A program made the translations under genes and the position numbers. From Heptranchias perlo (taxonomy: Eukaryota), in contig NC_090340.1 in the NCBI RefSeq assembly GCF_035084215.1, positions 8,928,001 to 8,992,000 on the forward strand: a stretch of 64,000 bases of DNA. Reading direction: 5' to 3'. Under the pieces are notes generated by a model. It was not told the DNA's origin, made no database searches, and saw only the letters and a list, made by a program, of their open reading frames with translations. Positions 173-64,000 of the stretch are shown here, piece by piece; positions within the stretch are counted from its first letter, which is position 1, and every line of letters starts with the position of its first letter.

Positions 173-27201
<27,029 letters not shown>

Positions 27202-27227
27202 CGCTACCAATGAGCCGGACAGTCACA

Positions 27228-27345: not shown

Positions 27346-27669
27346 GCAAATATTACATTGAGGGAAATATGGGCACATGTCGGCTCCTGTAATCCCGCCA
27401 GGGAGACTCCACAGCACTGGAGGGAGACACAGACCCCGAGCTGATGATTGTAACTCAGGTCCTGCCCCAAATATACAGTGTATGAGATTCACACTGTAAC
27501 TGTGGGCAGGACAGAAATCAAAACAGGAAATGTGCATTGTCCATCTCCGAAATACATTGAATGTTTAAGAGCACAGTTTATTAATGAAGATAGTTGGTGA
27601 TATGGAAGATTCCAGTGATTATCTTTATTAAAACAGGAGTGGATACATCTGAATTCGTTTATGAGGGAC

Positions 27670-27905
27670 GGAAGAGGAGGAAGTGAAACGATTGCGATTG
27701 TACACTGGGATATTACACTGGGCGATGTTGTTGTCGGAATAAAAAGCTCCGATTAAACTCTTCTCTCTGCTATTTCCAAGAAGGCGTTCACTTGCTTCTT
27801 TTAAAATACGTTAAGACCTCCGTTAAACAGCCCACAGAGGAATTTGCCACCATTGCGATTAACGTTCCCACCAGAATGTGGCGCCGTGTCATTCTCCGGA
27901 ATGGA
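27670..27905. promoter_or_regulatory. Core motif module (unit 1 copy): ETS-IRF composite, GAS and N4-GAS sites
   Basis: GAGGAAGTGAAA 27677-27688, ATAAAAAG 27739-27746, TTCCAAGAA 27774-27782, TTCTCCGGAA 27892-27901. Present in every unit; the ETS-IRF site is mutated in U4. Confidence 0.45.
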
Positions 27906-28430
27906 TGTATTTTCTCAAAAACTATTAAAAATGAGAGTTTCGATTTTCTGCTGTATCTGAGATTAAAAGTTACTGTAAGTGTGTGTAGGCACGGGATTAA
28001 AATAATGAAACAAAATAACAGACCAGAAGGCAACAAATAACAGTGTAATGAAGTACTGTAAACACAGGTGACAATCTGGCACCAAATCTGTGCTGGAAAT
28101 GTTGCAATAGTCTCGGTAAAGTAACGAAATAACCTGTGCCCTTAAACTGTCCTTTAAATATATGGACACACTGTAGATAATAACTATTGTTCCTTTCAAC
28201 TATTTTGCTGTATTTTCCAGGAGATCCTTTGAAAACTGCATTTCCCCAACAACCTCCCAATTACAGAAAGACTTGTATTTATGGAACACTTTATCACATT
28301 CTCAGGATGTCCCAAAACGTTTCATCCTCATTAATTACTTTATTTAAGTGTAGCTACTGTTAAGCAGCAAAACGCAGCAGATAAATTTACACACAAGGTC
28401 TCACAAACAGCATGAGATGAATCATCAGTT

Positions 28431-31250
28431 GTACGGTAGCATAGTGGTTATATAAATGGATTAGTAATCCAGGAGGTCTAAACTAATAATCTGGCGTCAT
28501 GAGTTCAAATCCCACCATGGCAGCTGGGGAATTTAAATTCAATTAATTAAATAAAATCTGGAATTAAAATACTAGTATCAGTAATGGTGGCTATGAAACG
28601 ACTGGATTGTTGTAAAAACCCATCTGGTTCACTAATGCTCTTTAGGAAAGGAAACCTACTATCCTTACCTGGTCTGGCCTATATATGCCTCCAGACCCAC
28701 AGCAAAGTGGTTGATTCTTAATTGCCCTCTGAAGTGGCCAGCAAGCCACTCAGTTGTAAAATCTCACTAAAAGAAGTCATAATAAGAATAAAACCAGACG
28801 GACCACTAGGCACCAGACACGACTAAAGGCAAGCCCAGCCCAGTCACTAACATCTGGGGACTTGTACCAAAATTGGGAGAGCTGTCAAGCAACAACGTGA
28901 CATAGTCCATACTCACAGAATCATACCTTTCAGCCAACGTCCCAGACTCCTTGCAGTACAATAATATACAGTCAGGAGGTAAGTGGCCCTTGGTGTCCTC
29001 AACATTGACTCTGGATCTCATGGCATCAGCCCAAACATGGGCAAGGAAACCTCCTGCTGATTACTGCCTACCACCCTCCCTCAACTATGAATCAGTCCTC
29101 CTCCAATGTCGAATACCTACTTGGAGGTAGCAAGGGCACAGAATGTACTCTGGGTGGTGGCACTTCAATGTCCATCACCAAACGTGGCTCAGTAGCACCA
29201 CTAGTGACACAAGCTGGCCGAGCCCTGAAGGATACAGCTGCCAGACTGGACCTGCGGTAGGTGGTGAGTGAACCAACACGAGGGGGAAAAACTTACTTGA
29301 CCTCATCCTCACCGATCTAGCTGTCCATGACAGTATTAGGTAGGAGTGACCACTAGCACAGTCCTCGTGGAGATGAAGTCCCGTCCTTGCACTGAGGACA
29401 CCATCCAACGTGTTGTGTGGCACGACCACCGTGCTAAATGGGATAGATTCAGAACAGATCTAGCAGCTCAAAACTGGGCATCCATGAGGTGCCATGGGGC
29501 AGCAGACTTGTATTCCAGCATGATCTGTAACGTCATGACCCGGCATATTCCTCAGCTCTACCATTCCCAACCAAGCCAGGGGATCAACCCTGGTTCAAAG
29601 AGGAGTGCAGACGAGCAGCACCAGGCGTACCGAAAAACGAGGTGCTAACCTGGTGAAGCTACGACTCAGGACTTACTTGCATGCTAAACAGCGGAAGTAA
29701 CATGCGAGAGACAGAGCTAAGCGATTCCACAACCAACGGATCAGGTCAAAGCTCTGCAGTTGTGAATGGTGATGGACAATTAAACAACTAACGGGAGGAG
29801 GAAGAGGACTCTGTAAACATCCCCATCCATCAATGATGGCGGAGTCCAGCACGTGAGTGGAAGAGACAAGGCTGAAGCGTTTGCAGCCAGAAGTGCCGAG
29901 TGGATGATCAATCTCGACCTCCTCCCGATATCCCTACCACAGAAGCCAGTCTTCAGCCAATTCGATTCACTCCACGTGATATCAAGAAACGGCTGAGTGC
30001 ACTGGATACTGCAAAGGCTATGGGCCCCGAGAACATCCCGGCTGTAGTGCTGAAGACTTGTGCTCAAGAACTAGCTGCGCCTCCAGCCAAACTGTTCCAG
30101 TACAGCTACAACACTGGCATCTACACGACAATGTGGAAAAATGCCCAGGTATGTCCTGTCCACAAAAAGCAGGACAAATCCAATCCGGCCAATTACCGCC
30201 CCATCAGTCTACTCTCAATCATCAGCAAAGTGATGGAAGGTGTCATCGACAGTGCTATCAGGTGGCATTTACTCACCAATTACCTGCTCACCGATGCTCA
30301 GTTTGGGTTCCGCCAGGACCACTCGGCTCCAGACCTCATTACAGCCTTGGTCCAAACAGGACAAAAGAGCTGAATTCCAGAGGTGAGGTGAGAGTGACTG
30401 CCCTTGACATCAAGGCAGCATTTGACCAAGTATGGCACCAAGAAGCCCGAGTAAAATGGGAATCAGGGGGAAAACTCTCCAGTGGCTGGAGTCATACCTA
30501 GCACAAAGGAAGATGGTAGTGGTTGTTGGAGGCCAATCATCACAGCCTCAGGGCAGTGTCCTAGGCCCAACCATCTTCAGCTGTTTCAACAATGGCCTTC
30601 CCTCCATCATAAGGTGAGAAATGGGGATGTTCGCTGAAGATTGCACAGTATTAAGTTCCATTCGCAACCCCTCAGATAATGAAGCAGCCCGAGCCGCATG
30701 CGGCAAGACCTGGACAATATCCAGGCTTGGGCTGATAAGTGGCAAATAACATTCGCGCCAGACAAGTGCCAGGCAATGACCATCTCCAAAAAAAGAGAGT
30801 CTAACCACCTCCCCTTGACATTCAACGGCATTAACATCGCCGAATCCCCCATCATCAACATCCTGGGGATCACCATTGACCAGAAACTTAACTGGACCAG
30901 TCATATAAATACTGTGGCTACGAGAGCAGGTCAGAGGCTGGGTATTCTGCAGCGAGTGACTCACCTCCTGACTCCCCAAAGCCTTTCCACCATCTACAAG
31001 GCACAAGTCAGGAGTGTGATGGAATACTCTCCACTTGCCTGGATGAGTGCAGCTCCAACAACACTCAAGAAGCTCGACACCATCCAGGACAAAGCAGCCC
31101 GCTTGATTGGCACCCCATCCACCACCCTAAACATTCACTCCCTTCACCACCGGCGCACTGTGGCTGCAGTGTGTACCATCCACAGGATGCACTGCAGCAA
31201 CTCGCCAAGGCTTCTTAGACAGCACCTCCCAAACCCGCGACCTCTACCAA
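28431..31250 (+). mobile_element. CR1/L2-group non-LTR retrotransposon with tRNA-like 5' head, disrupted APE-RT ORF and missing 3' tail; unit 1 only
   Basis: NYRPISLLS, QFGFR, LDIKAAFD, QGSVLGP and YKAQVRSVMEYSPLAW in ORFs 29900-31255; A and B boxes at 28437-28512. Confidence 0.9.
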
Positions 31251-31923
31251 ATTAAATAAAATGACCAGATAATCTGTTTATCGGTGTTGGTTGAGGGATA
31301 AATATTGGCCAGGATAATTGGGAGAACTCCCTTGCTCTTTGACGAGTGTAATGGGATCTTTTACATCTAACTGAGAGGGCAGATGGGGCCTCAGTTTAAC
31401 AACTCATCTGAAAGACGGCACCTCCAACAGTGCAGCTCACCCTCAGTACTGCACTGAAATGTCAGCCTGGATTATCTGCTCAAGTGCATGGTGGAACAAC
31501 CAACAATCTTCTAACTCAGGGGTGAGAGTGCTACCGATTGAACCAAGCTGACAGTGTAGGACCAGTGTTTTAGAATGGATTAAAAACTAAAAAATATCAA
31601 TCTTTTCAGTGGGGCGGGCAGGGGTTTTTTCCATGGGGTGTTTGGATATGAGATTAAAACAAAACTACTTCAAATAGGAATTTCAAGATAAGGTTCAAAA
31701 TAGAAACATTGTTTCTTTCATTGGTCGAACAATTCAAATAAAGCAAATTAAAAGAAAAACAGTCTCGTCCGATAAAAATTCTAACACGCCAAGTCCAAGT
31801 GTGTCGCTAGTCTATCGATAACTTTACTACTAGTCACTGAAATATCCCGGTGAACATTTTAGAAGCACGGGCCCAACTAATTGGTTTTCACTGGTCGAAT
31901 TGCAGAACTGACCGCTCTGGAGA

Positions 31924-31964
31924 ACTTCCCCTTGTTTCTGTGTTCTGAGGAACGTTCCTTCGAA
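31924..31964. promoter_or_regulatory. Distal motif module (unit 1 copy): PU.1-type site plus two adjacent TTC-N4-GAA sites
   Basis: ACTTCCCCTT, TTCTGAGGAA, TTCCTTCGAA. Identical at 38591-38631, 43682-43722, 48886-48926, 55436-55476 and 59904-59944. Confidence 0.45.
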
Positions 31965-32111
31965 AGGAAGAGTGGTCCTGTAAAAAAAGTCACAGGAATT
32001 TCGAGAGGTGTTTGAACATCTGACCCTGAACACCCCTCACCCATCAGGACTCTTGTTTATAAATATTTTATTCATAACAATAAAAAGTAACAATAAGCAA
32101 TAAGATGTGTA

Positions 32112-32580: not shown

Positions 32581-32807
32581 TGAGGAGAACATTGATGAAA
32601 AAAGGAGGAGCAAAGGTAAAAAATAATAAGAAAATCCCTCGACTGGAGGGAGACACAGATCTGGACTCGGGAGAGACACAGATCCTGGCCTGAGAGGGAG
32701 ACACAGAGCCTAGACTCAAGAGAGTCCTGGATTCTGGACTGGTGGAAGACACAGATCCTGGACTGGAGAGAAACACAGATTGTGGATTGGACAGAGACAC
32801 AAATCCT

Positions 32808-34672
32808 ATGATGTGGAGATGCCGGTGATGGACTAGGATGGACAAATGTAAGGAGTCGTACAACACCAGTCGTACAACACCAGGTTATAGTCCAACAACT
32901 TTATTTGAAATCACAAGCTTTCGGAGCTTTCCTCCTTCGTCAGGTGAGTGAAGGGTTCCATAAAGGCACAGCATATATAGTCAGAGAACAATGCCTGGTG
33001 ATTACAGATAATCTTTCCAACTGCCCCTTATCACACCTCAGCAGAGAGATAATCACAGCAATCAAAGGATTGGATGGTGTTCAGACAGAGAAACATTACA
33101 TCCAAGAATACTGAGTACACAAGCGGTCAGATTACAAAGACAGAGAGAGAGAGAGACACACCCGAAAGGCAGAGAAAGAGAGAGAATGACCAGTTGTATT
33201 AAAAACAGATAACTTTTTTTTCGCTGGTGGGATTACATGTAGTGTAACATGAACCCAAGATCCCGGTTGAGGCCGTCCTCATGGGTGCGGAACTTGGCTA
33301 TCAATTTCTGCTCAACAATTTTGCGTTGTCATGTGCCTCGAAGGCTGCCTTGGAGAACGCTTACCCGAAGATCGGAGGCTGAATGTCCTTGACTGCTGAA
33401 GTGTTCCCCGACTGGGAGGGAACCCTCCTGTCTGGCGATTGTTGTGCGGTGTCCGTTCATCCGTTGTCGCAGTGTCTGCATGGTCTCGCCGATGTACCAT
33501 GCTCCGGGGCATCCTTTCCTGCAACGTATGAGGTAGACAACGTTGGTCGAGTCACAGGAGTATGAACCATGTACCTGGTGGGTGGTGTCCTCTCGTGTGA
33601 TGGTGGTATCTGTGTCGATGATCTGGCATGTCTTGCAGAGGTTGCCGTGGCAGGGTTGTGTGGTGTCATGGACGCTGTTCTCCTGAAAGCTGGGTAATTT
33701 GCTGCGAATGATGGTCTGTTTGAGGTTGGGTCGCTGTTTGAAGGCGAGTAGTGGAGGTGTGGGGATGGCCTTAGCGAGGTGTTCGTCATCATCGATGACA
33801 CGTTGAAGGCTGCGAAGAACATGGCGTAGTTTCTCCGCTCCGGGGAAGTACTGGATGATGAAGGGTACTCTGTTGGTTGTGTCCCGTATTTGTCTTCTGA
33901 GGAGATCTATGCAATTTTTCGCTGTGGCCCGTCGGAACTGTCGATCGACGAGTCGAGCGTCATATCCCATTCTTACGAGGGTGTCTTTCAGCGTCTGTAG
34001 GTGTCCATCGTGTTCCTCCTCGTCTGAGCAGATCCTGTGTATTCGCAGGGCCTGTCCACAGGGGATGGCCTCTTTGACGTGGTTAGGGTGGGAGCTGGAA
34101 AAGTGGAGCATCGTGAGGTTGTCCGTGGGCTTGCGGTAGAGTGAGGTGTTGAGGTGCCCGTCTTTGATGGAGATTCGTGTGTCCAAGAATGAAACCGATT
34201 CTGAGGAGTAGTCCATGGTGAGTTTGATGGTGGGATGGAACTTGTTGATGTTATCGTGTAGTCTCTTCAGTGATTCTTCGCCGTGGGTCCATAGGAAGAA
34301 AATGTCGTCGATGTATCTGGTGTATAGCGTTGGTTGGAGGTCCTGTGCAGTGAAGAAGTCGTGCTCGAACTTGTCCATGAAAATGTTGGCGTATTGGGGT
34401 GCGAATTTGATCGCCATGGCTGTTCCACGTGTTTGGGTAAAGAACTGGTTATCGAAGGTGAAGACATTGTGATCCAGCATGAAGCAGATGAGTTGTAGGA
34501 TGGCGTCTGGAGATTGGCTGTTGTTGGTGTTGAGTATTGATGCTGTTGCAGCGATGCCGTCATCGTGGGGGATACTGGTGTAGAGTGCCGAGACGTCCAT
34601 CGTGGTGAGAAGTGTTCCTGGTTCAACTGGTCCGTGGGTGCTGAGTTTTTGTAGGAAGTCTGTAGTGTCCAT
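32808..34672 (-). mobile_element. Penelope-like element (RT plus GIY-YIG), 5'-truncated, inserted in the 24-bp minisatellite
   Basis: 447-aa ORF with DVSALYTSI, GTAM, RYIDDIF, Cys-rich linker CHGNLCKTC and NVVYLIRC...YIGET...R; in-frame TGA at 33329-33331. Confidence 0.95.
32911..32947 (-). ncRNA. Minimal type I hammerhead ribozyme motif in the Penelope 3' region
   Basis: UCAC-CUGACGA-A-GGAG-gaaag-CUCC-GAAA-GC-UU-GUGA: helix I UCAC/GUGA, helix II GGAG/CUCC, palindromic AGCU helix III. Confidence 0.8.
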
Positions 34673-35568: not shown

Positions 35569-36609
35569 GAGCCTGGACTGGAGGGAGGGACACAGACCCT
35601 GGGAAGAAGATAAAAAAACACAGACCCGAGCTGGAGATTGAAACACGGACCCTGGGTTGCAGATTGAAATACAAACGGTGGGTCAGAGAACTGGAGAGAG
35701 ACACAGACCCTGGACTGGAGGAAGACAGGGATACTGGACTGGAGAGAGACACAGATCCTGGACTGGACAGAGACACAAATGCTGGAATGGAGAGAAACAC
35801 AGACCCTGCCCCAAATAAAGACTGTGTGACTTGACTCTGTAACCCTGAGCTGGATATTAATCAAAACAGGAAATGTGCATTGTCCAGCTCCGAAACACGT
35901 TGAATGTTTAAGAGCACAGTTTATTAATGAAGATAGTTGGTGATATGGAAGATTCCAGTGATTATCTTTATTAAAACAGGAGCGGATACATATGAATTCA
36001 TTTATGAGGGACGGAAAAGGAGGAAGTGAAACGATTGCGATTGTACACTGGGATATTACACTGGGCGATGTTGTTTTAGGAATAAAAAGCTCCGATTAAA
36101 CTCTTCTCTCTGCTATTTCCAAGAAGGTGTTCACTTGCTTCTTTTAAAATACGTTAAGACCTCCATTAAACAGCCCACAGAGGAATTTGCCACCATTGCG
36201 ATTAACGTTCCCACCAGAATGTGGCGCCGTGTCATTCTCAGGAATGGATGTATTTTCTCAAAAACTATTAAAAATGAGAGTTTCGATTTTCTGCTGTATC
36301 TGAGATTAAAAGTTACTGTAAGTGTGTGTAGGCACGGGATTAAAATAATGAAACAAAATAACAGACCAGAAGGCAACAAATAACAGTGTAATGAAGTACT
36401 GTAAACACAGGTGACAATCTGGCACCAAATCTGTGCTGGAAATGTTGCAATAGTCTCAGTAAAGTAACGAAATAACCTGTGCCCTTAAACTGTCCTTTAA
36501 ATATATGGACACACTGTAGATAATAACTATTGTTCCTTTCAACAACGTTGCTGTATTTTCCAGGAGATCCTTTGAAAACTGCATTTCCCCAACAACCTCC
36601 CAATTACAG

Positions 36610-37047
36610 AAAGACTTGTATTTATGGAACACTTTATCACATTCTCAGGATGTCCCAAAACGCTTCATCCTCATTAATTACTTTATTTAAGTGTAGCTAC
36701 TGTTGTTAAGTAGCAAAACGCAGCAGATAAATTTACACACAAGATCTCACAAACAGCATGAGATAAATCATCAGTTGATCTGTTTTTAGTTGAGGGGGGA
36801 ATGTTGGCCGGGGAGAACTCCCCTGCTCTTCTTCCAATAGTGGCCGTGGGATCTTTAACATCCACTTAAACAGGCAGACGGAATCTCGGTTTAACGTTTT
36901 ATCTGAAAGACGGCACCTCTGACAGTGCAGCACTCCCTCAGTGCGGCACTGGGAGTGTCAGCCTGGATTACGGACTCAGGTCTGGGATTGAGGTCCCATA
37001 AACTTTTAACTCAGGCGTGAGTGTTACCAATGGAGCCAATCTGACAA
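36610..37047 (-). mobile_element. DeuSINE A of the array unit (U2 copy; also near 42115, 46987, 53520, 57984; partial at 28266-28430)
   Basis: Reverse-complement tail, Deu domain and tRNA head. Confidence 0.85.
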
Positions 37048-37249
37048 CTGGATACAGTAATCCTTTTCTTGTGCTCACTAAGGCGAGGATTGTTAGTGCT
37101 GGGGAATGAAACCCTTTCTATTTCAGGTACTCAGTGACAGCATCTCAGCATAAAACACTCCCACTCCCAGCTCAGCTATCGAATGGTAAGATATGGAGCA
37201 CAGCTCTGTCCCAACAGTGTCAGTACTGCACCAAACTGACATTTCATCC

Positions 37250-37451
37250 ATCCTGTGAGTTCACTGAGAGAGACTCACAATTAATGCTCGGTTATGGGCG
37301 GTTTTATTCCAGATACAGGAACTGGATTGAGATGGCACAAGCCCCTCAGCAGAGAGAGAAGACTTTCATCCCATCGTTCTACCTGGGATATGGACCCAGG
37401 TCCCAGAGGTTAAACATCAGTGACTGACCCACTGTATCACCCAGTCCTCCC
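37250..37451 (-). mobile_element. LF-SINE-like relic (also in U4, U5, U6)
   Basis: GGACTGGGTG..CAGTGG, TTTAACCTCTGGG, GAAAGTC, TCTCAATCCAGTTCCT, AAAACCGCC and GCATTAATTG are colinear with the recalled LF-SINE consensus. Confidence 0.6.
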
Positions 37452-37811
37452 TTAAGACACTTTATTATAAAACATTCAGGCCCTGAAATGACACGGTGTG
37501 ATACTAATCTATGAATGGTTAACATGTTGATCTGAAATTCCTCCCTCAGACGGAGGAATTAACCTGTTGAAAATAAGTGGGTTAATGCTAAACTGGCAGA
37601 GTAATTTCAGATAGAGACATTAAGCATTTGCACATTAGCATCAGATGGCCATGTTCCTGGACTTGACTGCATCAAAAGAAGAACAGACTTGCATTACTAT
37701 AGCATCTTTCAGGGTGGGAGGAGCCTCATGTAGAGTATAAACACCGGCAGAGACCTGTTGGGCCGAATGGCCTTTTTCTCTGCTGTAAAATTCTATGTAA
37801 CTCTATGTAAC

Positions 37812-38220
37812 TTACTCGGGATGTCCCAAAGTGTTTCATAGCCGATGGATTAATTTTTGACGTGTTGTTATGGAGACAAGTACACCAATTAATTTACACA
37901 CAGAAAGGTCCCACAAATGAAATAAAATGACCAGATAATCTGTTTATCAGTGTTGGTTGAGGGATAAATATTGGCCAGGACAATGAGGAGAGCTCCCTTG
38001 CTCTTTGACGAGTGCAATGGGATCTTTTACATCTACCTGAGAGGGCAGACGGGGCCTCAGTTTAACGACTCATCTGAAAGACAGCACCTCCAACAGTGCA
38101 GCTCACCCTCAGTACTGCACTGAAATGTCAGCCTCGATTATCTGCTCAAGTGCATAGTGGGACAACCAACAATCTTCTAACTCAGGGGTGAGAGTGCTAC
38201 CGATTGAACCAAGCTGACAG
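37812..38220 (-). mobile_element. DeuSINE B of the array unit (U2 copy; present in all units, partial at 31252-31553)
   Basis: Reverse-complement Deu domain and head. Confidence 0.85.
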
Positions 38221-39299
38221 TGTAGGTCTAGTGTTTTAGAATGGATTAAAAACCAAAAAATATCAATCTTTTCAGTGGGGCGGGCAGGGTTTTTTTTCTA
38301 TGGGGTGTTTGGATATGAGATTAAAACAAAACTACTTCAAATAGGAATTTCAAGATAAGGTTCAAAATAGAAACATTGTTTCTTCCATTGGTCGAACAAT
38401 TCAAATAAAGCAAATGAAAAGAAAAACAGTCTAGTCGGATAAAAACTCTAACACGCCAAGTCCAAGTGTGTCGCTAGTCTATCGATAACTTTGCTACTAG
38501 TCACTGAAATATCCCGGTGAACATTTTAGAAACACGGGCCCAACTAATCGGTTTTCACTGGTCGAATTGCAGAACTGACCGCTCTGGAGAACTTCCCCTT
38601 GTTTCTGTGTTCTGAGGAACGTTCCTTCGAAAGGAAGAGTGGTCCTGTAAAAAAAGTCACAGGAATTTCGAGGGGTGTTTGAACATCTGACCCTGAACAC
38701 CCCTCACCCATCAGGATTCTTGTTTATGAATATTTTATTCATAACAATAAAAAGAAACAATAATCAATAAGCTGTGTAGACACGAGGGAGAAATGTGCTC
38801 GGGTTTGGCTCCTGATCGCTACCCATGGAACCCTGCAGGAAGTGTAGACAGGAATATAGGAATTGCTGGATGTAAAAAGACCAAGGTCCATCCAGTTCAC
38901 CTTCTACCATCCTGGTAGTCGCATGATACAATGATAATGGAGTTATTGACTAATCATAGCTAGCAATCTCTATCAATTAGTCTACAACAGACATGACCAA
39001 GCAAAAAAACCCACTGGTGGAGAGCTTTTGGAGCCATGGGTACAAAGTCACCTGTTCCTCACGAATGTAAACAAGTGGACATTAGGTGAAACTGAGTTGT
39101 GATGGCTTCCTACGGCCAAAAGGACCACTGACATTTGCTGATTAGGGTCAAGAATGGCTAATTGGGTGAGGTACTAGAGACCAACCAGTGCCCCTGTAAT
39201 AATAGCCCAACAAGGCAGGCCTTCAGAAGAGGAGGAAGGGTGAGGAGAACATTGATGAAAAAAGGAGGAGCAAAGGTAAAAAATAATAAGAAAATCACT

Positions 39300-40160: not shown

Positions 40161-40164
40161 ATCA

Positions 40165-43700: not shown

Positions 43701-45090
43701 TTCTGAGGAACGTTCCTTCGAAAGGAAGAGTGGTCCTGTAAAAAAAGTCACAGGAATTTCGAGGGGTGTTTGAACATCTGACCCTGAACACCCCTCACCC
43801 ATCAGGACTCTTGTTTATGAATATTTTATTCATAACAATAAAAAGTAACAATAAGCAATGAGCTGTGTAGACACGAGGGAGAAATGTGCTCGGGTTTGGC
43901 TCCTGATCGCTGCCCATGGAACCCTGCAGGAAGTGTAGATAGGAATATAGGAATTGCTGGATGTAAAAAGACCAAGGTCCATCTAGTTCACCTTCTACCA
44001 TCCTGGTAGTCGCATGATACAATAATAATGGAATTATTGACTAATCATAGCTATCAATCTCTATCAATTAGTCTACAACAGACCCACACATGACACAAGG
44101 AAAATCCCACTGGTGGAGAGCTTTGGGAACCATGGGTCCAAAGTCACCTGTTCCTCCCAAGTGTACACGTGTGGACATCAGGTGAGGCTGAGTTGTGATG
44201 GCTCCCTACAGACAAAAGCACCACTAACATTTGCTGATTAGAATCATGAATGGCTGATTGGGTGAGGTACTAGAGACCAACCAGTGCCCCTGTAATAATA
44301 GCCCAACGAGGCAGGCCTTCAGAAGAGGAGGAAGGGTGAGGAGAACATTGATGCAAAATGGAGGAGCAAAGGTAAAAAATAATAAGAAAATCCCTCGACT
44401 GGAGGAAGACACAAATCCTGGACTGGCGGAAGACACAGATCCTGGACTGGAGAGAGGCACAGATCCTGGACTGGCGGAAGACACAGATCCTGGACTGGAG
44501 AGACGCACAGATCCTGGAGTGGAGGAAGACACAGATCCTGGACTGGAGGGAGGCACAGATCCTGGCCTGAGATGGAGACACAGAGCCTAGACTCAAGAGA
44601 GTCCTGGATCCTGGACTGGGGGAAGACACTGATTGTGGACTGGAGAGAAACACAATTCCTGGACTGGAGTGAGACACAGATCTTGGACTGGAGAGGGACA
44701 CAGAACCTGGACTAGAGAGAGAGACACACACAGATCCTCGACTGGATGAAACACAGAAGCTGGACTGGAGAGAGACACAGAACCTGGACTGGAGAGAGAC
44801 ACAAGTCCTGGAGTGGAGGGAGACACAGATCCTAGACTGGAAGCAGACTTAGATCCTGGACTTGAGGACGACACAGATCCTGGACTGGAGGATGAAACAT
44901 ATCCCAGACTGGAGAGAGACACAAATCCTGGAATGGAGGGAGGCACAGATCGTAATCTGGAAGCACCGACCCTGGACTGCAGATTGACACAGATCCTGGA
45001 CTGAAGAGAGACATGGATCCTGGACTGTGGGGAGGCACTGATACTGGATTGGAGTGAGACACAGATCCTGGACTGGATGGAGACATAGAT

Positions 45091-48600: not shown

Positions 48601-49769
48601 TGTTTGGATATGAGATTAAAACAAAACTACTTCAAATAGGAATTTCAAGATAAGGTTCAAAATAGAAACATTGTTTCTTCCATTGGTCGAACAATTCAAA
48701 TAAAGCAAATGAAAAGAAAAACAGTCTAGTCGGATAAAAACTCTAACACGCCAAGTCCAAGTGTATCGCTAGTCTATCAATAACTTTGCTACTAGTCACT
48801 GAAATATCCCAGTGAACATTTTAGAAGCACGGGCCCAACTAATCGGTTTTCACTGGTCGAATTACAGAACTGACCGCTCTGGAGAACTTCCCCTTGTTTC
48901 TGTGTTCTGAGGAACGTTCCTTCGAAAGGAAGAGTGGTCCTGTAAAAAAAGTCACAGGAATTTCGAGGGGTGTTTGAACATCTGACCCTAAACACCCCTC
49001 ACCCATCAGGACTCTTGTTTATGATTATTTTATTCATAACAATAAAAAGAAACAATAATCAATAAGCTGTGTAGACACGAGGGAGAAATGTGCTCGGGTC
49101 TGGCTCCTGATCGCTGCCCATGGAACCCTGCAGGAAGTGTAGATAGGAATATAGGAATTGCTGGATGTAAAAAGACCAAAGTCCATCTAGTTCACCTTCT
49201 ACCATCCTGGTAGTCGCATGATACAATGATAATGGAGTTATTGACTAATCATAGCTATCAATCTCTATCAATTAGACTACAACAGACCCACACATGACAC
49301 AAGGAAAAAATCCCACTGGTGGAGAGCTTTGGGAACCATGGGTCCAAAGTCACCTGTTCCTCCCAAGTGTACACGTGTGGACATCAGGTGAGGCTGAGTT
49401 GTGAAGTCTCCCTACGGACAAAAGGCCCGCTGACGTTTGCTGATTAGGGTCAAAAATGGCTAATTGGGTGAGGTACTAGAGACCAACCAGTGCCCCTGTA
49501 ATAATAGCCCAACAAGGCAGGCCTTCAGAAGAGGAGGAAGGGTGAGGAGAACATTGATGAAAAAAGGAGGAGCAAAGGTAAAAAATAATAAGAATATCCC
49601 TCGACTGGAGGGAGACACAGATCTGGACTCGGGAGAGACACAGATCCTGGCCTGAGAGGGAGACACAGAGCCTAGACTCAAGAGAGTCCTGGATTCTGGA
49701 CTGGTGGAAGACACAGATCCTGGACTGGAGAGAAACACAGATTGTGGATTGGACAGAGACACAAATCCT

Positions 49770-52526: not shown

Positions 52527-55500
52527 GAGCCTGGACTGGAGGGAGGGACACAGACCCTGGGAAGAAGATAAAAAAACACAGACCCGAGCTGGAGATTGAA
52601 ACACGGACCCTGGGTTGCAGATTGAAATACAAACGGTGGGTCAGAGAACTGGAGAGAGACACAGACCCTGGACTGGAGGAAGACAGGGATACTGGAATGG
52701 AGAGAAACACAGACCCTGCCCCAAATAAAGACTGTGTGACTTGACTCTGTAACCCTGAGCTGGATATTAATCAAAACAGGAAATGTGCATTGTCCAGCTC
52801 CGAAATACGTTGAATGTTTAAGAGCACAGTTTATTAATGAAGATAGTTGGTGATATGGAAGATTCCAGTGATTATCTTTATTAAAACAGGAGCGGATACA
52901 TCTGAATTCGTTTATGAGGGACGGAAGAGGAGGAAGTGAAACGATTGCGATTGTACACTGGGATATTACACTGGGCGATGTTGTTGTAGGAATAAAAAGC
53001 TCCGATTAAACTCTTCTCTCTGCTATTTCCAAGAAGGCGTTCACTTGCTTCTTTTAAAATGCGTTAAGACCTCCATTAAACAGCCCACAGAGGAATTTGC
53101 CACCATTGCGATTAACGTTCCCACCAGAATGTGGCGCCGTGTCATTCTCAGGAATGGATGTATTTTCTCAAAAACTATTAAAAATGAGAGTTTCGATTTT
53201 CTGCTGTATCTGAGATTAAAAGTTACTGTAAGTGTGTGTAGGCACGGGATTAAAATAATGAAACAAAATAACAGACCAGAAGGCAACAAATAACAGTGTA
53301 ATGAAGTACTGTAAACACAGGTGACAATCTGGCACCAAATCTGTGCTGGAAATGTTGCAATCGTCTCGGTAAAGTAACGAAATAACCTGTGCCCTTAAAC
53401 TGTCCTTTAAATATATGGACACACTGTAGATAATAACTATTGTTCCTTTCAACTATTTTGCTGTATTTTCCAGGAGATCCTTTGAAAACTGCATTTCCCC
53501 AACAACCTCCCAATTACAGAAAGACTTGTATTTATGGAACACTTTATCACATTCTCAGGATGTCCCAAAACGCTTCATCCTCATTAATTACTTTATTTAA
53601 GTGTAGCTACTGTTGTTAAGTAGCAAAACGTAGAAGATAAATTTACACACAAGGTCTCACAAACAGCATGAGATGAATCATCAGTTGATCTGTTTTTAGT
53701 TGAGGGGGGAATGTTGGCCGGGGAGAACTCCCCTGCTCTTCTTCCAATAGTGGCCGTGGGATCTTTAACATCCACGTAAACAGGCGGACGGAATCTCGGT
53801 TTAATGTTTTATCCGAAAGACGGCACCTCTGACAGTGCAGCACTCCCTCAGTACGGCACTGGGAGTGTCAGCCTGGATTACGGACTCAGGTCTGGGATTG
53901 AGGTCCCATAAACTTTTAACTCAGGTGAGAGTGGTACCAATGGAGCCAAGCTGACAACTGGATACAGTAATCCTTTTCTTGTGCTCACTAAGGCGAGGAT
54001 TGTTAGTGCTGGGGAATGAAACCCTTTCTATTTCAGGTACTCAGTGACAGCATCTCAGCATCAAACACTCCCACTCCCAGCTCAGCTATCGAATGGTAAG
54101 ATATGGAGCACAGCTCTGTCCCAACAGTGTCAGTACTGCACCAAACTGACATTTCATCCATCCTGTGAGTTCACTGAGAGAGACTCACAATTAATGCTCG
54201 GTTATGGGCGGTTTTATTCCAGATACAGGAACTGGATTGAGATGGCTCAAGCCCCTCAGCAGAGAGAGAAGACTTTCATCCCATCGTTCTACCTGGGATA
54301 TGAACCCAGGTCCCAGAGGTTAAACATCAGTGACTGACCCACTGTATCACCCAGTCCTCCCTTAAGACACTTTATTATAAAACGATCCTCCCTCAGACGG
54401 AGGAATTAACCTGTTTAAAATAAGTGGGTTAATGCTAAACTAGCGGAGTAATTTCAGATGGAGACATTAAGCATTTGCACATTAGCATCAGATGGCCTTG
54501 TTCCTGGACTTGACTCTATCAAAAGACGAACAGACTTGCATTACTATAGTGCCTTTCAGGGTGGGAGGAGCCTCATGTCGAGTATAAACACCGGCAGAGA
54601 TCTGTTGGGCCGAATGGCCTGTTTCTTGGCGATAAAATTCTATGTACCTCTATGTAACTTACTCGGGATGTCCCAAAGTGTTTCATAGCCGATGGGTGAA
54701 TTTTTGAAGTGTTGTTATGGAGACAAATACACCAATTAATTTACACACAGAAAGGTCCCACAAATGAAATAAAATGACCAGATAATCTGTTTATTGGTTT
54801 TGGTTGAGGGATAAATATTGACCAGGAAAATGGGGAGAACTCCCTTGCTCTTTGACGAGTGCAATGGGATCTTTTACATCTACCTGAGAGGGCAGACGGG
54901 GCCTCGGATTAACGACTCATCTGAAAGACGGCACCTCCAACAGTGCAGCTCACCCTCAGTACTGCACTGAAATGTCAGACTGGGTTATGTGCTCAAGTGC
55001 ATGGTGGGACAACCAACAATCTTCTAACTCAGGGGTGAGAGTGCTACTGATTGAACCAAGCTGACAGTGTAGGACCAGTGTTTTAGAATGGAATTTTTAA
55101 AAAAAATATCAATCTTTTCAGTGGGGCGGGCAGGGGTTTTTTCCATGGGGTGTTTGGATATGAGATTAAAACAAAACTACTTCAAATAGGAATTTCAAGA
55201 TAAGGTTCAAAATAGAAACATTGTTTCTTCCATTGGTCGAACAATTCAAATGAAGCAAATGAAAAGAAAAACAGTCTAGTCGGATAAAAACTCTAACATG
55301 CCAAATCCAAGTGTGTCGCTAGTCTATCAATAACTTTGCTACTAGTCACTGAAATATCCCAGTGAACATTTTAGAAACACGGGCCCAACTAATCGGTTTT
55401 CACTGGTCGAATTACAGAACTGACCGCTCTGGAGAACTTCCCCTTGTTTCTGTGTTCTGAGGAACGTTCCTTCGAAAGGAAGAGTGGTCCTGTAAAAAAG

Positions 55501-56144
55501 TCACAGGAATTTCGAGGGGTGTTTGAACATCTGACCCTGAACACCCCTCACCCCTCAGGACTCTTGTTTATGAATATTTTATTCATAACAATAAAAAGAA
55601 ACAATAATCAATAAGCTGTGTAGACACGAGGGAGAAATGTGCTCGGGTCTGGCTCCTGATCGCTGCCCATGGAACCCTGCAGGAAGTGTAGATAGGAATA
55701 TAGGAATTGCTGGATGTAAAAAGACCAAAGTCCATTCAGTTCACCTTCTACCATCCTGGTAGTCGCATGATACAATAATAATGGAGTTATTGACTAATCA
55801 TAGCTATCAATCTCCATCAATTATTCTACAACAGACAAGAAACAAGGCAAAAAACTCACTGGTGGAGAGCTTTTGGAGCCATGGTTACAAAGTCACCTGT
55901 TGCTCACGAATGTAAACAAGTGGACATCAGGTGAGGCTGAGTTGTGAAGGCTTCCTACGGCCAAAAGCACCACTGACATTTGCTGATTAGGGTCAAGAAT
56001 GGCTGATTGGGTGAGGTACTAGAGACCAACCAGTGCCCCTGTAATAATAGCCCAACAAGGCCGGCCTTCAGAAGAGGGGTTAGGGTGAGGAGAACATTGA
56101 TGCAAAATGAAGGAGCAAAGGTAAAAAAATAATAAGAAAATTCC

Positions 56145-57178
56145 TCGACTGGAGAGAGACACAGATCCTGGACTGGAGAGGGACGCAGAACCTGGACTGG
56201 AGAATGTCACATCTCCAGGCCTGGAAGGAGACACAAATCCTGGTCTGGGGGGAGGCACTGATTCTGGACTGGCAGAAGACACAGATCCTGGACTGGAGGG
56301 AGGCACTGATCCTGGACTGGAGGGAAACACAGAACCTGGACTGGAGGGAGGCACTGATCCTGGACTGGAGGGAGGCACTGATCCTGGACTGGAGGGAGGC
56401 ACAGATCCTGGACTGGAGGGAGGCACAGATCCTGGACTGGAGGGAGACACAGATCCTGGACTGGCAGAAGACACAGATCCTGGACTGGAGTGAGACACAG
56501 ATACTGGGCTGAGAGGGAGACACAGAGCCTAAACTCAAGAGAGTCCTAGATCCTGGACTGGGGGAAGACACGGATTGTGGACTTGAGAGAGACACAGATC
56601 CTGGACTGGCAGAGCACACAGATAGTGGACTGGAGGGAGGCACAGATCCTGGACTGGAGGGAGGCACAGATCCTGGACTGGAGGGAGGCACAGATCCTGG
56701 ACTGGAGGGAGGCACAGATCCTGGACTGGCAGAAGACACAGATCCTGGACTGGAGTGAGACACAGATACTGGGCTGAGAGGGAGACACAGAGCCTAAACT
56801 CAAGAGAGTCCTAGATCCTGGACTGGGGGAAGACACGGATTGTGGACTTGAGAGAGACACAGATCCTGGACTGGAGAGAGACACAGATCCTGGACTGGAG
56901 GGAGGCACAGACCCTGGACTGGAGGGAGACACAGATCCTGGCCTGAGAGGGAGACACAGAGCCTAGACTCAAGAGAGTCCGAGATCCTGGACTGGAATGA
57001 GACACAGATCATGGACTGGAGAGAGACACAGATCCTGGACTGGAGAGAGACACAGATTTTGGACTGGAGAGAGACACAGATCCTAGGCTGGAGAGAGACA
57101 CAGATCCTAGGCTAGAGAGGGACACAGATCCTGGACTGGAGAGAGACACAGATCCTGGACAGGAGAGAGACACAGATG
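56145..57178. repeat. 24-bp minisatellite (U5), uninterrupted by LINE or Penelope
   Basis: Same unit, with internal ~260-bp higher-order duplications. Confidence 0.95.
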
Positions 57179-60100
57179 CTCCCCCAAATATACAGTGTAT
57201 GAGATTCACACTGTAACTCTGGGCAGGGCATGAACCAAAACCAGAAGAGTGCACTGTCCATCTCTGAAATACGTTGAATGTTTAAGAGCACAGTTTATTA
57301 ATGAAGATAGTTGGTGATATGGAAGATTCCAGTGATTATCTTTATTAAAACAGGAGCGGATACATCTGAATTCGTTTATGAGGGACGGAAGAGGAGGAAG
57401 TGAAACGATTGCGATTGTACACTGGGATATTACACTGGGCGATGTTGTTGTAGGAATAAAAAGCTCCGATTAAACTCTTCTCTCTGCTATTTCCAAGAAG
57501 GCGTTCACTTGCTTCTTTTAAAATACGTTAAGACCTCCATTAAACAGCCCACAGAGGAATTTGCCACCATTGCGATTAACGTTCCCACCAGAATGTGGCG
57601 CCGTGTCATTCTCAGGAATGGATGTATTTTCTCAAAAACTATTAAAAATGAGAGTTTCGATTTTCTGCTGTATCTGAGATTAAAAGTTACTGTAAGTGTG
57701 TGTAGGCACGGGATTAAAATAATGAAACAAAATAACAGACCAGAAGGCAACAAATAACAGTGTAATGAAGTACTGTAAACACAGGTGACAATCTGGCACC
57801 AAATCTGTGCTGGAAATGTTGCAATAGTCTCGGTAAAGTAACGAAATAACCTGTGCCCTTAAACTGTCCTTTAAATATATGGACACACTGTAGATAATAA
57901 CTATTGTTCCTTTCAACAACGTTGCTGTATTTTCCAGGAGATCCTTTGAAAACTGCATTTCCCCAACAACCTCCCAATTACAGAAAGACTTGTATTTATG
58001 GAACACTTTATCACATTCTCAGGATGTCCAAAAACGCTTCATCCTCATTAATTACTTTAGTTAAGTGTAGCTACTGTTGTTAAGTAGCAAAACGTAGAAG
58101 ATAAATTTACACACAAGGTCTCACAAACAGCATGAGATGAATCATCAGTTGATCTGTTTTTAGTTGAGGGGGGAATGTTGGCTGGGGAGAACTCCCCAGC
58201 TCTTCTTCCAATAGTGGCCGTGGGATCTTTAACATCCACGTAAACAGGCAGACGGAATCTCGGTTTAACGTTTTATCTGAAAGACGGCACCTCTGACAGT
58301 GCAGCACTCCCTCAGTACGGCACTGGGAGTGTCAGCCTGGATTACGGACTCAGGTCTGGGATTGAGGTCCCATGAACTCATGACTCTGAGCTGAGAGTGG
58401 TACCAATGGAGCCAAGCTGACAACTGGATACAGTAATCCTTTTCTTGTGCTCACTAAGGTGAGGATTGTTAGTGCTGGGGAATGAAACCCTTTCTATTTC
58501 AGGTACTCAGTGACAGCATCTCAGCATCAAACACTCCCACTCCCAGCTCAGCTATCGAATGGTAAGATATGGAGCACAGCTCTGTCCCAACAGTGTCAGT
58601 ACTGCACCAAACTGACATTTCATCCATCCTGTGAGTTCACTGAGAGAGACTCACAATTAATGCTCGGTTATGGGCGGTTTTATTCCAGATACAGGAACTG
58701 GATTGAGATGGCACAAGCCCCTCAGCAGAGAGAGAAGACTTTCATCCCATCGTTCTACCTGGGATATGGACCCAGGTCCCAGAGGTTAAACATCAGTGAC
58801 TGACCCACTGTATCACCCAGTCCTCCCTTAAGACACTTTATTATAAAACGATCCTCCCTCAGACGGAGGAATTAACCTGTTTAAAATAAGTGGGTTAATT
58901 ATAAACTAGCAGAGTAATTTCAGATAGAGACATTAAGCATTTGCACATTTGCATCAGATGGCTTTGTTCCTGGACTTGACTGTCTCAAAAGACGAACAGA
59001 CTAACATTACTATAGCAACTTTCAGGGTGGGAGGAGCCTCATGTAGAGTATAAACACCGGCAGAGACCTGTTGGGCCGAATGGCCTTTGTCTGTGCGATA
59101 AAATTCTATGTAACACTATGTAACTTACTCGGGGTGTCCCAAAGTGTTTCATAGCCGATGGGTTAATTTTTGAAGTGTTGTTATGGAGACAAATACACCA
59201 ATTAATTTACACACAGAAAGGTCCCACAAATGAAATAAAATGACCAGATATTCAGTTTATCGGTGTTGGTTGAGGGATAAATATTGACCAGGACAATGGG
59301 GAGAACTCCCTTGCTCTTTGACGAGTGCAATGGGATCTTTCACATCCACCTGAGAGGGCAGACCGGGCTTCGGATTAACGACTCATCTGAAAGACGGCAC
59401 CTCCAACAGTGCAGCTCACCCTCAGTACTGCACTGAAATGTCAGCCTGGGTTATGTGCTCAAGTGCATGGTGGGACAACCAACAATCTTCTAACTCAGGG
59501 GTGAGAGTGCTCCCGATTGAACCAAGCTGACAGTGTAGGACCAGTGTTTTAGAATGGATTAAAAACTAAAAAATATCAATCTTTTCAGTGGGGCGGGCAG
59601 GGTTTTTTTTATATGGGGTGTTTGGATATGAGATTAAAACAAAACTACTTCAAATAGGAATTTCAAGATAAGGTTCAAAATAGAAACATTGTTTCTTCCA
59701 TTGGTCGAACAATTCAAATAAAGCAAATGAAAAGAAAAACAGTCCAGTCGGATAAAAACTCTAACATGCCAAGTCCAAGTGTGTCGCTAGTCTATCGATA
59801 ACTTTGCTACTAGTCACTGAAATATCCCGGTGAACATTTTAGAAGCACGGGCCCAACTAATCGGTTTTCACAGGTCGAATTACAGAACTGACCGCTCTGG
59901 AGAACTTCCCCTTGTTTCTGTGTTCTGAGGAACGTTCCTTCGAAAGGAAGAGTGGTCCTGTAAAAAAAGTCACAGGAATTTCGAGGGGTGTTTGAACATC
60001 TGACCCTGAACACCCCCTCACCCATCAGGACTCTTATTTATGAATATTTTATTCATAACAATAAAAAGTAACAATAAGCAATAAGCTGTAGACACGAGGG

Positions 60101-61481
60101 AGAAATGTGCTCGGGTTTGGCTCCTGATCGCTGCCCATGGAACCCTGCAGGAAGTGTAGACAGGAATATAGGAATTGCTGGATGTAAAAAGACCAAAGTC
60201 CATCTAGTTCACCTTCTACCATCCTGGTAGTCGCATGATACAATAATATTGGAGTTATTGACTAATCATAGCGATCAATCTCTATCAAATAGACTACAAC
60301 AGACCCACACATGACACCAGGAAAAAACCCACTGGTGGAGAGCTTTGGGAACCATGGGTCCAAAGTCACCTGTTCCTCCCAAGTGTACACGTGTGGACAT
60401 CAGGTGAGGCTGAGTTGTGATGGCTCCCTACAGACAAAAGCACCACTAACATTTGCTGATTAGGGTCATGAATGGCTGATTGGGTGAGGGACTAGAGACC
60501 AACCAGTGCCCCTGTAATAATAGCCCAACAAGGCAGGCCTTCAGAAGAGGGGTTAGGGTGAGGAGAACATTGATGAAAAATGGAGGAGCAAAGGTAAAAA
60601 ATAATAATAAAATCGCTCGACTGGAGGAAGACACAAATCCTGGACTGGCGGAAGACACAGATCCTGGACTGGAGAGAGGCACAGATCCTGGACTGGAGGA
60701 AGACACAGATCCTGGATTGGAGGGAGGCACAGATCCTGGAGTGGAGGCAGACACAGATCCTGGAGTGGAGGGAGGCACAGATCCTGGAGTGGAGGGAGGC
60801 ACAGATCCTGGAGTGGAGGAAGACACAGATCCTGGACTGGAGGGAGGCACAGATCCTGGAGTGGAGGAAGACACAGATCCTGGAGTGGAGGGAGGCTCAG
60901 ATCCTGGAGTGGAGGGAGGCACAGATCCTGACCTGGAGAGAGACACAGATCCTGGCCTGAGATGGAGACACACAGCCTGGACCCAAGAGAGTCCTAGATC
61001 CTGGACTGGGGGAAGACACTGATTGTGGACTGGAGAGAAACACAAATCCTGGACTGGAGTGAGACACAGATCTTGGACTGGAGAGGGACACAGAACATGG
61101 ACTAGAGAGAGAGACACACACAGATCCTCGACTGGATGAAACACAGAAGCTGGACTGGAGAGAGACACAAATCCTGTACTGGAGAGAGACACAAGTCCTG
61201 GAGTGGAGGGAGACACAGATCCTGGACAGGAAGCAGACTTAGATCCTGGACTCGAGGACGACACAGATCCTGGACTGGAGGATGAAACATATCCCAGACT
61301 GGAGAGAGACACAAATCCTGGAATGGAGGGAGGCACAGATCGTAATCTTGAAGCACCGACCCTGGACTCCAGATTGACACAGATCCTGGACTGAAGAGAG
61401 ACATGGATCCTGGACTGTGGGGAGGCACTGATACTGAATTGGAGTGAGACACAGATCCTGGACTGGATGGAGACATTGATC

Positions 61482-62086
61482 AGATCAGAGGCTGGGTATT
61501 CTGCAGCGAGTGACTCACCTCTTGACTCCCCAAATACTTTCACCATCTACAAGGCACAAGTCAGGAGTGTGATGGAATACTCTCCACTTGCCTGGATGAG
61601 TGCTGCACCAACAACACTCAAGAAGCTCGACACCATCCAGGACAACGCAGCCCTCTTGTTTGGAACCCCCTCTAATGCGTTAAACACTCAGTCCCTCCAT
61701 CACCGGTGCACAGTGGCTGCAGTGTATACCATCCACAGGATGCATTGCAGCAAATCACCAAGGCTTCTTTGACAGCACCTCCCAAACCTGCGACCTCCAT
61801 TACCTAGAAGGACCAGGGCGGCAGGCACATGGGAACAACACCACCTGCACGTTCCCCTACAAGTCACATACCATCCCGACTTGGAAATATATCGCCGTTC
61901 CTTCATCGTCACTGGGTCAAAATCCTGGGACTCCCTTCCTAACAGCAGTGTGGGAGAACCTTCACCACACGGACTGCAGCGGTTCAAGAAGACGGCTCAC
62001 CACCACCTTCTCAAGGGCAATTAGGGATGGGCAATAAATGCTGGCCTTGCCAACGACGCCCACAGCCCACGAATGAATAAAAAAAA
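61482..62086 (+). mobile_element. LINE 3' fragment (unit 6)
   Basis: Same insertion point; unit 5 lacks this fragment. Confidence 0.9.
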
Positions 62087-62107
62087 GAACCTGGACTGGT
62101 GAGAGAC

Positions 62108-64000
62108 AGAGACCCAGGGCTGGAGATTGAAATACAGACCCAGGGCTGGAGATTGAAATACAGACCCAGGGCTGGAGATTGAAACACAGACCCTGGGCTG
62201 GAGATTAAAATACAGACCCAGGGCTGGAGATTAAAATACAGACCCAGGGCTGGAGATTAAAACACAGACCCAGGGCTGGAGATTGAAATACAGACCCAGG
62301 GCTGGAGATTAAAATACAGACCCAGGACTGGAGATTGAAATACAGACCCAGGGCTGGAGATTGAAATACAGACCCAGGGCTGGAGATTGAAATACAGACC
62401 CAGGGCTGGAGATTGAAATACAGACCCAGGGCTGGAGATTAAAATACAGACCCAGGGCTGGAGATTGAAATACAGACCCAGGGCTGATGATTGAAATACA
62501 GACCCAGGGCTGGAGATTGAAATACAGACCCAGGGCTGGAGATTAAAATACAGACCTAGGGCTGGAGATTGTAATAAACACCCAGGGCTGGAGATTGAAA
62601 CACAGACCCAGGGCTGGAGATTAAAATACAGACCCAGGGCTGGAGATTGAAATACAGACCCAGGGCTGGAGATTAAAATACAGACCCAGGGCTGGAGATT
62701 GAAATACAGACCCAGGGCTGGAGATTGAAACACAGACCCAGGGCTGGAGATTGAAATACAGACCCAGGGCTGGGGATTGAAATACAGACCCAGGGCTGGA
62801 GATTAAAATACAGACCTAGGGCTGGAGATTGTAATAAACACCCAGGGCTGCAGATTGAAACACAGACCTAGGGCTGGAGATTGAAATACAGACCTACGGC
62901 TGGAGATTGAAACATAGACCTAGGGCTGGAGATTGAAATACAGACCCAGGGCTGGAGATTGAAACACAGACCTGGGGCTGGAGATTGAAATACAGACCTA
63001 GGGCTGGAGATTGAAACACAGACCCTGGGCTGGAGAGTGAAACACAGGCCTTGGGCTGGAGAGTGAAACACACACCGAGGGCTGGAGAGTGAAACACAGA
63101 CCTTGGGCTGAAGATTGAAACACAGACCCTGGGCTGGAGATTGAAATACAGACCCAGGGCTGGAGATTGAAATACAGACCCAGGGCTGGAGATTAAAATA
63201 CAGACCCAGGGCTGGAGATTGAAATACAGACCCAGGGCTGATGATTGAAATACAGACCCAGGGCTGGAGATTGAAATACAGACCCAGGGCTGGAGATTAA
63301 AATACAGACCTAGGGCTGGAGATTGTAATAAACACCCAGGGCTGGAGATTGAAACACAGACCCAGGGCTGGAGATTAAAATACAGACCCAGGGCTGGAGA
63401 TTGAAATACAGACCCAGGGCTGGAGATTAAAATACAGACCCAGGGCTGGAGATTGAAATACAGACCCAGGGCTGGAGATTGAAACACAGACCCAGGGCTG
63501 GAGATTGAAATACAGACCCAGGGCTGGGGATTGAAATACAGACCCAGGGCTGGAGATTAAAATACAGACCTAGGGCTGGAGATTGTAATAAACACCCAGG
63601 GCTGCAGATTGAAACACAGACCTAGGGCTGGAGATTGAAATACAGACCTACGGCTGGAGATTGAAACATAGACCTAGGGCTGGAGATTGAAATACAGACC
63701 CAGGGCTGGAGATTGAAACACAGACCTGGGGCTGGAGATTGAAATACAGACATATGGCTGGAGATTGAAACACAGACCCTGGGCTGGAGAGTGAAACACA
63801 GGCCTTGGGCTGGAGAGTGAAACACACACCGAGGGCTGGAGAGTGAAACACAGACCTTGGGCTGAAGATTGAAACACAGACCCTGGGCTGGAGATTGAAA
63901 CAGAGACGTAGCGCTGGAGAGTGAAAAACAGACCCTGGGCTGGAGATTGAAACACAGACCCAGGGCTGGAGATTGAAACACAGACCCAGGGCTGGAGATT
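62108..64000. repeat. 26-bp minisatellite, expanded in U6 (shorter tracts at ~40790-41130 and ~45720-45955)
   Basis: Unit gaaatacagacccagggctggagatt, about 70 copies to the window end. Confidence 0.97.

Follow-up and report, generated by a model that had tools for sequence, protein, structure and literature searches.

The question raised by this locus is whether a regulatory module that is repeated many times directly upstream of a promoter is a multiplied enhancer, or a piece of flanking DNA that was amplified together with the element it contains. It concerns 64,000 nucleotides of the genome of the shark Heptranchias perlo (contig NC_090340.1, positions 8,928,001 to 8,992,000; hereafter the window, to which all positions refer, those beyond 64,000 being window-equivalent). 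An initial annotation of this sequence had described a tandem array of at least six units that begins about 250 bp upstream of the ATG of a cathepsin A-like gene, and had proposed an enhancer multiplied by tandem duplication. The array indeed starts at 27455, i.e., 254 bp from the ATG at 27201, and the six units in the window belong to an array of ten. We consider it probable that this array is a ten-copy amplification of the 5' flank of the gene, likely brought about by unequal crossing-over and likely kept alike by sequence exchange, with one probably genuine myeloid element and extra copies that are likely passengers.

The gene beside the array is intact and, with its promoter, is placed as follows.

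179..27201, minus strand: cathepsin A-like gene (lysosomal protective protein-like, Peptidase_S10), from tblastn of shark homologues and spliced RNA contigs
27202..27426, minus strand: its 5' UTR and proximal promoter, from a motif scan; exon-1 RNA contigs end at 27198-27314

The tblastn search with shark homologues yielded 12 coding exons with open frames throughout, the final two of which precede the window start. Exon 1, the coding part of which is 27047-27201, has 75-90% identity to shark and ray proteins named lysosomal protective protein-like or cathepsin A-like (12 of 42 candidates), with 90% for those of Pristiophorus and Heterodontus. The motif scan revealed a GC box in the promoter at 27282 and two E-box/M-box-like palindromes, TCATATGA at 27305 and TCACATGA at 27332, which we take to be MITF/TFE-type sites. 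The array contig carries one full gene, and a more distant paralogue is present on contig C22. Carcharodon has two distinct cathepsin A-like proteins (P0006 and P0008), so the locus may have duplicated in further sharks. Several tandem repeats occur within the gene: a 62-bp repeat (13112-13303; 3.1 copies, 100% alike) that copies the 3' end of a coding exon plus its donor and could supply alternative donors, a 45-bp intronic minisatellite (3367-3978) and, in intron 1, a GC-rich and CpG-rich 31/40-bp minisatellite (25865-26374) that has expanded separately in a duplicated copy (L003:72-1031). Among the literature matches listed for the cathepsin A-like gene or the array in sharks, nothing relevant was found.

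The ten units lie head-to-tail with periods of 4464-9157 bp (4.5-9.2 kb) and extend over ~68 kb, from 27455 to ~95080, flanked by the cathepsin A-like gene and CNOT1. In an own-genome search the core gave ten full copies and the distal part likewise ten, confined to 68 kb of one contig; with the unit 1 core as query every full match fell inside the array, only positions 804-976 of the query representing a dispersed repeat. A full unit comprises, in this order, a unique core of ~810 bp, a short repeat piece, a SINE-like piece, a unique middle, another SINE-like piece, a MITE, a short unique piece, a second dispersed repeat, a tail and blocks of a 24/26-bp minisatellite, mostly accompanied by a LINE 3' fragment (the SINE-like pieces were so labelled from their dispersal and length). 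The promoter segment 27202..27426 is absent from units 2-9. The parts of the array are the following.

27455..28265, unstranded: unit 1 core, array-specific, 10 copies (own-genome search)
28432..31248, plus strand: broken LINE (RVT_1 pieces; profile match) that substitutes for the middle of unit 1
32637..32807, plus strand: first 24/26-bp minisatellite block at the unit junctions (Tandem Repeats Finder)
32820..34670, minus strand: retroelement piece (RVT_1; open stretch of 468 aa) that follows only units 1 and 4, the two pieces being 97.8% alike
35796..39290, unstranded: unit 2, with the complete layout of core, SINE-like piece, unique middle (37050-37640), SINE-like piece, MITE and tail
41314..44386, unstranded: unit 3, middle partly deleted
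46176..49592, unstranded: unit 4, EICE broken
52715..56136, unstranded: unit 5
57173..60607, unstranded: unit 6
62110..64000, unstranded: 26-bp minisatellite running past the window end (Tandem Repeats Finder)
64366-81167, beyond the window: units 7-9
86919-95077, beyond the window: unit 10

Further 24/26-bp blocks were located with Tandem Repeats Finder at 34680, 35690, 39301, 40792, 44393, 45716, 49599, 51629, 56142, 60619 and 62110. The retroelement shared behind units 1 and 4 lies within a 4475-bp match (97.9%), which points to a higher-order duplication of three units. Long minisatellites at the junctions are hard to assemble, and the array might for that reason be thought an assembly artefact. 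However, the units differ by 1-5% and bear private retroelement insertions and deletions, and the sole N run in 264 kb sits 33 kb before the window; we regard an artefact as extremely unlikely. In agreement with the initial annotation, no recognisable protein gene lies behind the unit: five open frames from its unique parts matched no Pfam family, and Rfam gave no match at E<=0.1 in 27200-42500. Two coding candidates were rejected, i.e., a plus-strand frame from the ATG at 27876 (MWRRVILRNG...), which is frameshifted in unit 7, and a possible 59-bp exon on the plus strand of the middle segment, which overlaps a dispersed repeat. A search of metagenome contigs for orthologous DNA of the array found none.

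The core contains the three sites that had been assigned to the EICE, GAS and STAT6-type N4 consensus sequences.

27677..27688, plus strand: EICE GAGGAAGTGAAA, in 9 of 10 units, broken in unit 4
27774..27782, plus strand: GAS (N3) TTCCAAGAA, in 10 of 10 units
27892..27901, plus strand: N4 (STAT6-type) site TTCTC(A/C)GGAA, in 10 of 10 units

These assignments agree with the EICE consensus GGAANNGAAA given in PMC4821649, which the core matches with a GAS TTCN3-4GAA nearby, and with the GAS and STAT6 N4 consensus sites given in PMC6242948. The GAS sites of the ten units are at 27774, 36117, 41622, 46494, 53027, 57491, 64684, 70327, 78063 and 87220. That each unit keeps the whole cluster is correct for the GAS and N4 sites in all six units of the window, whereas the EICE is present in five of them; in unit 4 two substitutions (columns 27683 and 27685) break its ETS flank and its IRF half-site. 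The substitution that had been noticed in the N4 spacer of unit 1 is an A>C at 27897, common to unit 10.

When the 811-bp core was dinucleotide-shuffled 2000 times, loose GAS (N3) and loose N4 sites were common (P=0.26 for either) and a loose EICE was less so (P=0.05), whereas the strict EICE GGAAGTGAAA (P=0.0035) and the joint set of EICE, GAS and N4 (P=0.004) were rare; the joint set was encountered in 3 of 1948 overlapping 800-bp intervals of 195 kb of flanking DNA. The notion of a motif density above that of shuffled sequence thus holds for the strict EICE and the joint core set but not for the single loose motifs, and the joint P rises to 0.12 when all 3.5 kb of the non-satellite unit are considered. 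All these P values are optimistic, because the motifs were chosen after being seen. The rarity of the combination makes it plausible that one real, ancestral myeloid element is situated near the cathepsin A-like promoter, a reading that leans on motifs picked post hoc. In mouse macrophages STAT6 regulates more than 100 lysosomal genes (PMC3880092); cathepsin A is not named in the main text of that paper.

The rarity of the core set would also fit a working, multiplied enhancer, the units of which bind PU.1/IRF and STAT at the core and at a MITE-derived site, so that copy number sets the myeloid or IL-4/13-driven output of the cathepsin A-like gene (or of CNOT1). The promoter is missing from the amplified unit, as would be expected of an enhancer multimer, and precedents are described for horse and chicken (PMC10989212; PMC2685452). 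Nevertheless, we regard such an enhancer as rather unlikely, and the comparison of the units provides arguments against it. Their cores are 95.5-99% alike, with 32 of 705 columns variable, against 147 of 1060 in the repeat-derived parts of the unit (P=3e-11), a difference that selection could likewise produce. However, constraint specific to the motifs is lacking: 3 of the 31 core motif columns are variable, where 1.4 are expected, and the EICE of unit 4 is broken. Motif-free DNA is equally conserved, with 17 of 424 columns variable in the unique middle and 22 of 398 in the motif-bearing core (Fisher P=0.33; 8 units having both). The longest invariant run of the middle measures 93 bp and is motif-free, and that of the core (166 bp, 27942-28107; 250 of 50000 permutations) has none of the named motifs inside. 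Furthermore, exchange among units is pervasive and their ancestry is mosaic, since of 3655 pairs of informative sites 2237 are incompatible under the four-gamete test, and of 500 pairs within 100 bp 200 are. Because the core motifs vary like their surroundings and motif-free DNA is just as uniform, the identity of the copies would reflect recency and sequence exchange. The caution of the initial annotation, that recent duplication alone would keep the motifs identical, is borne out: recent copying likely explains most of the likeness between copies, and the identity of the core motifs across units is, judged by these comparisons, not evidence of selection. CpG columns of the transcribed core are variable in 9 of 34 cases versus 14 of 365 for other columns, and inner units retain 12-14 CpG where the two promoter-linked units have 16, as expected for methylated, decaying copies.

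The distal cluster provides a different picture. An upstream region with consensus sites has been multiplied, as proposed, but half of the supposed enhancer module is a MITE.

31608..32045, unstranded: MITE copy bearing the distal cluster, of a family of ~480-495 bp with CAGTGGCGTAGGCAG-like inverted-repeat ends
31903..32005, unstranded: 103-bp stretch with no substitutions in all ten units, holding the distal cluster

The own-genome search gave 30 dispersed matches at 71-80% among the 40 scored of 2964 candidates, and candidates of this family run to thousands genome-wide. The 20 best-scoring dispersed copies align over ~400 bp and have inverted ends, which identifies the element as a MITE; 12 of these 20 show the 5' end pattern and 7 carry the reverse complement of it at their 3' end (<=4 mismatches), both ends occurring in 3, at 481, 494 and 576 bp from each other. 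With both ends recognized by pattern in these 3 copies only, no clean target-site duplication was seen for the MITE; that of hAT elements is 8 bp. The array MITE is 87-88% identical to the family majority and other copies are 86-93% identical to it.

Within the array MITE, the 103-bp stretch carries AAGGGGAAGT (31924-31933, minus strand) and TTCTGAGGAAcgTTCCTTCGAA (31943-31964). The identity of the distal cluster described earlier, AAGGGGAAGT on the minus strand plus TTCTGAGGAACGTTCCTTCGAA, is confirmed for all six units in the window and extends to all ten. None of the 32 distal motif columns is variable, while 11.7% of the columns flanking the stretch are. In permutations within the MITE an invariant run of this kind came up 19 times in 50000 (~0.014 when shared ancestry and 13 windows are roughly allowed for). 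Compared with the family majority, the stretch differs more than the remainder (23/103 vs 30/273), a figure that is partly alignment-dependent. The three named sites are absent from this position in all 20 dispersed copies; they arose via deletion plus substitutions, the first N4 site from a 12-13-bp deletion. The array MITE has kept 12 CpG, where dispersed copies have 2-12 (median 5.5). These features, i.e., the invariance, the absence of the sites from dispersed copies and the CpG count, speak for a multiplied enhancer, and a stretch that was changed and then frozen would be the one and best hint of selection or function. Conversion is an alternative cause of the invariance, and the motif-free runs of 166 bp (core) and 93 bp (middle) indicate that invariant runs also arise without the named motifs. 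Moreover, an N4-spaced site (TTC-N4-GAA) is already present near the second site, toward the 3' end, in 14 of the 20 dispersed copies, so this spacing comes cheaply.

A function of the core as an enhancer is further complicated by its transcription, since a pure enhancer leaves an exonic core unexplained.

27427..27958, unstranded: transcribed part of the core (RNA contigs)

Contigs of four coded runs (X1-X4; one sample of one study) were compared with 24000-37000. Their RNA nature rests on the exon-1/exon-2 splice junction: exon-1 contigs extend ten letters past the donor, and the mismatches in this overhang are exactly the two that exon 2 would produce, which indicates spliced RNA. Over 27427-27958 the contig depth is 17-71 (with 3-11 differences), near the 28-165 of exon 1, and it is at most 4-9 past 27958. 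In two runs the fit ends at 27958 and the record continues for 116 and 215 letters. No variation exists among the ten units at this position, which makes a minus-strand splice acceptor the simplest fit; it is best placed at 27957-27958, with an exon starting at 27956 and an upstream exon ending in AG, the strand being inferred. A plus-strand donor at 27974 is an alternative that would need an indel in that organism. The core contigs have in common four alleles otherwise confined to unit 10, along with single alleles of units 7 and 9 and one allele absent from all units, and may represent the single copy of a relative or copies that were merged.

One possible reading is that the core serves the cathepsin A-like gene as a spliced leader exon, transcribed from a promoter upstream of it, or else opens a divergent non-coding RNA as its first exon; what the array multiplies would then be an exon with its splice site rather than an enhancer. 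This would account for the depth of the core contigs, for the stop at 27958 in two runs, for the 166-bp invariant run that spans this boundary and for the residual depth of 12-28 in the gap to exon 1. We nevertheless consider it very unlikely, as the evidence consists of contigs from one sample of one study in which intron bins reach a depth of 26 as well, the contigs do not tell the transcribed unit apart from the others, and a minus-strand leader would carry 10 upstream ATGs. A minus-strand donor-like site at 103805, near the CpG island of CNOT1, is a possible origin of divergent transcripts toward the array; that it is the partner of the core exon is a guess.

The far end of the array bears on its origin, for which we return to amplification of the 5' flank.

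82534-86420, beyond the window: second copy of part of intron 1, a dead exon 1 and the promoter, preceding unit 10
105166-105267, beyond the window, plus strand: first coding exon of CNOT1, read from sequence and then confirmed

The second exon 1 is dead, with a 34-bp deletion, a frameshift and a lost donor. As exon 1 is the sole duplicated exon, a duplication of the whole gene was rejected. What was amplified is thus the upstream flank of the gene itself without the promoter, and promoter-bearing copies stand at both ends of the array. The two promoter copies are 100% identical over 284 bp (27143-27426 vs L003:2137-2420), including the first 20 codons of the dead exon, whereas the first and last copies differ at 24/273 and 44/620 positions of the intron, 8/706 of the core, 20/437 of the MITE and 12/206 of the tail. 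Sequence exchange would be the simplest reading of both the four-gamete failures and the near-identity of promoter and core in the end copies. The 284-bp identity beside an intron diverged by 7-9% could be a conversion tract, or it could reflect selection on a second, live promoter in front of the dead exon.

The history that we envisage would begin with an older tandem duplication of ~13 kb, comprising part of intron 1, exon 1, promoter and flank, of which the intron copies are those now 7-9% diverged. The second exon 1 would then have decayed, and a deletion would have joined the far end of the flank to the minisatellite adjacent to the core, creating a promoter-less unit. Unequal exchange may subsequently have expanded the array to nine units, the three-unit block included, and repeated conversion would have made promoter and core nearly identical in the first and last copies. 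Functionally, the promoter-proximal core with its EICE, GAS and N4 sites would assist in expressing the gene in PU.1/IRF8 cells and in response to cytokines, and far copies would contribute little. In horse, however, 2-3 copies of a weak enhancer already alter expression (PMC10989212), which means that passenger copies are not necessarily silent.

CNOT1 is a second possible target of elements in the array. Between the array and CNOT1 or just beyond, no Pfam cut-off was passed by the 56 of 159 listed open frames that were scanned for other genes. The CpG-island promoter of CNOT1 (L004:9800 to L005:1270) contains CAAGATGGCG near L005:468, presumably a YY1-type site. At its boldest, the locus could be read as a 68-kb immune "super-enhancer" in a wild vertebrate: a module present tenfold, whose MITE was turned into a PU.1 plus double STAT6-type element that then became frozen in all ten copies, and the copy number of which would set a myeloid, IL-4/13-inducible cathepsin A-like output, partly via a spliced upstream leader, beside the housekeeping CNOT1 promoter. 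We consider this combination of predicted elements quite unlikely.

Comparable arrays have been described in domestic animals. In Grey horses a 4.6-kb sequence is tandemly copied in intron 6 of STX17 (PMC10989212); as in the shark, the unit is tandem, kilobase-sized and non-coding, contains a cell-type control element (putative in the shark) and has two neighbouring genes as possible targets. The Grey allele has 2-3 copies with demonstrated enhancer activity and dosage effect, whereas the shark array has 10 copies, 1-5% diverged, is characterized from sequence and adjoins a promoter upstream instead of lying in an intron. Pea-comb chickens carry a massive amplification in intron 1 of SOX5 (PMC2685452), likewise non-coding, tandem, of high copy number and next to regulatory DNA; that is a domestic allele with a mapped phenotype, whereas the shark array is known from a genome assembly and its units are old enough to contain private transposon insertions. 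For the KITLG-locus copy-number variant of dogs (PMC3610924) the enhancer content was likewise predicted from sequence, but association with a trait was demonstrated, whereas the shark array is known from one assembly. With macrophage EICE/GAS enhancers (PU.1-IRF8, STAT1/STAT6; PMC4821649; PMC6242948) the shark core shares its consensus sites, which fall in one 225-bp span upstream of a lysosomal gene; the mouse macrophage enhancers were defined by ChIP and acetylation, the shark core by sequence matches. By analogy, the array may be regarded as a natural non-coding tandem amplification of the Grey-horse or Pea-comb kind, for which a dosage function is possible.

If the copies are active, the locus would represent a natural enhancer multimer in a shark and would show that lysosomal genes of cartilaginous fish are under PU.1/IRF-STAT6 control. 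Its unit-specific variants, with unit 4 as a natural EICE knock-out, make copy-by-copy tests possible. If the copies are inactive, the array would be an ordinary segmental amplification, which would still point to a likely ancestral myeloid element.
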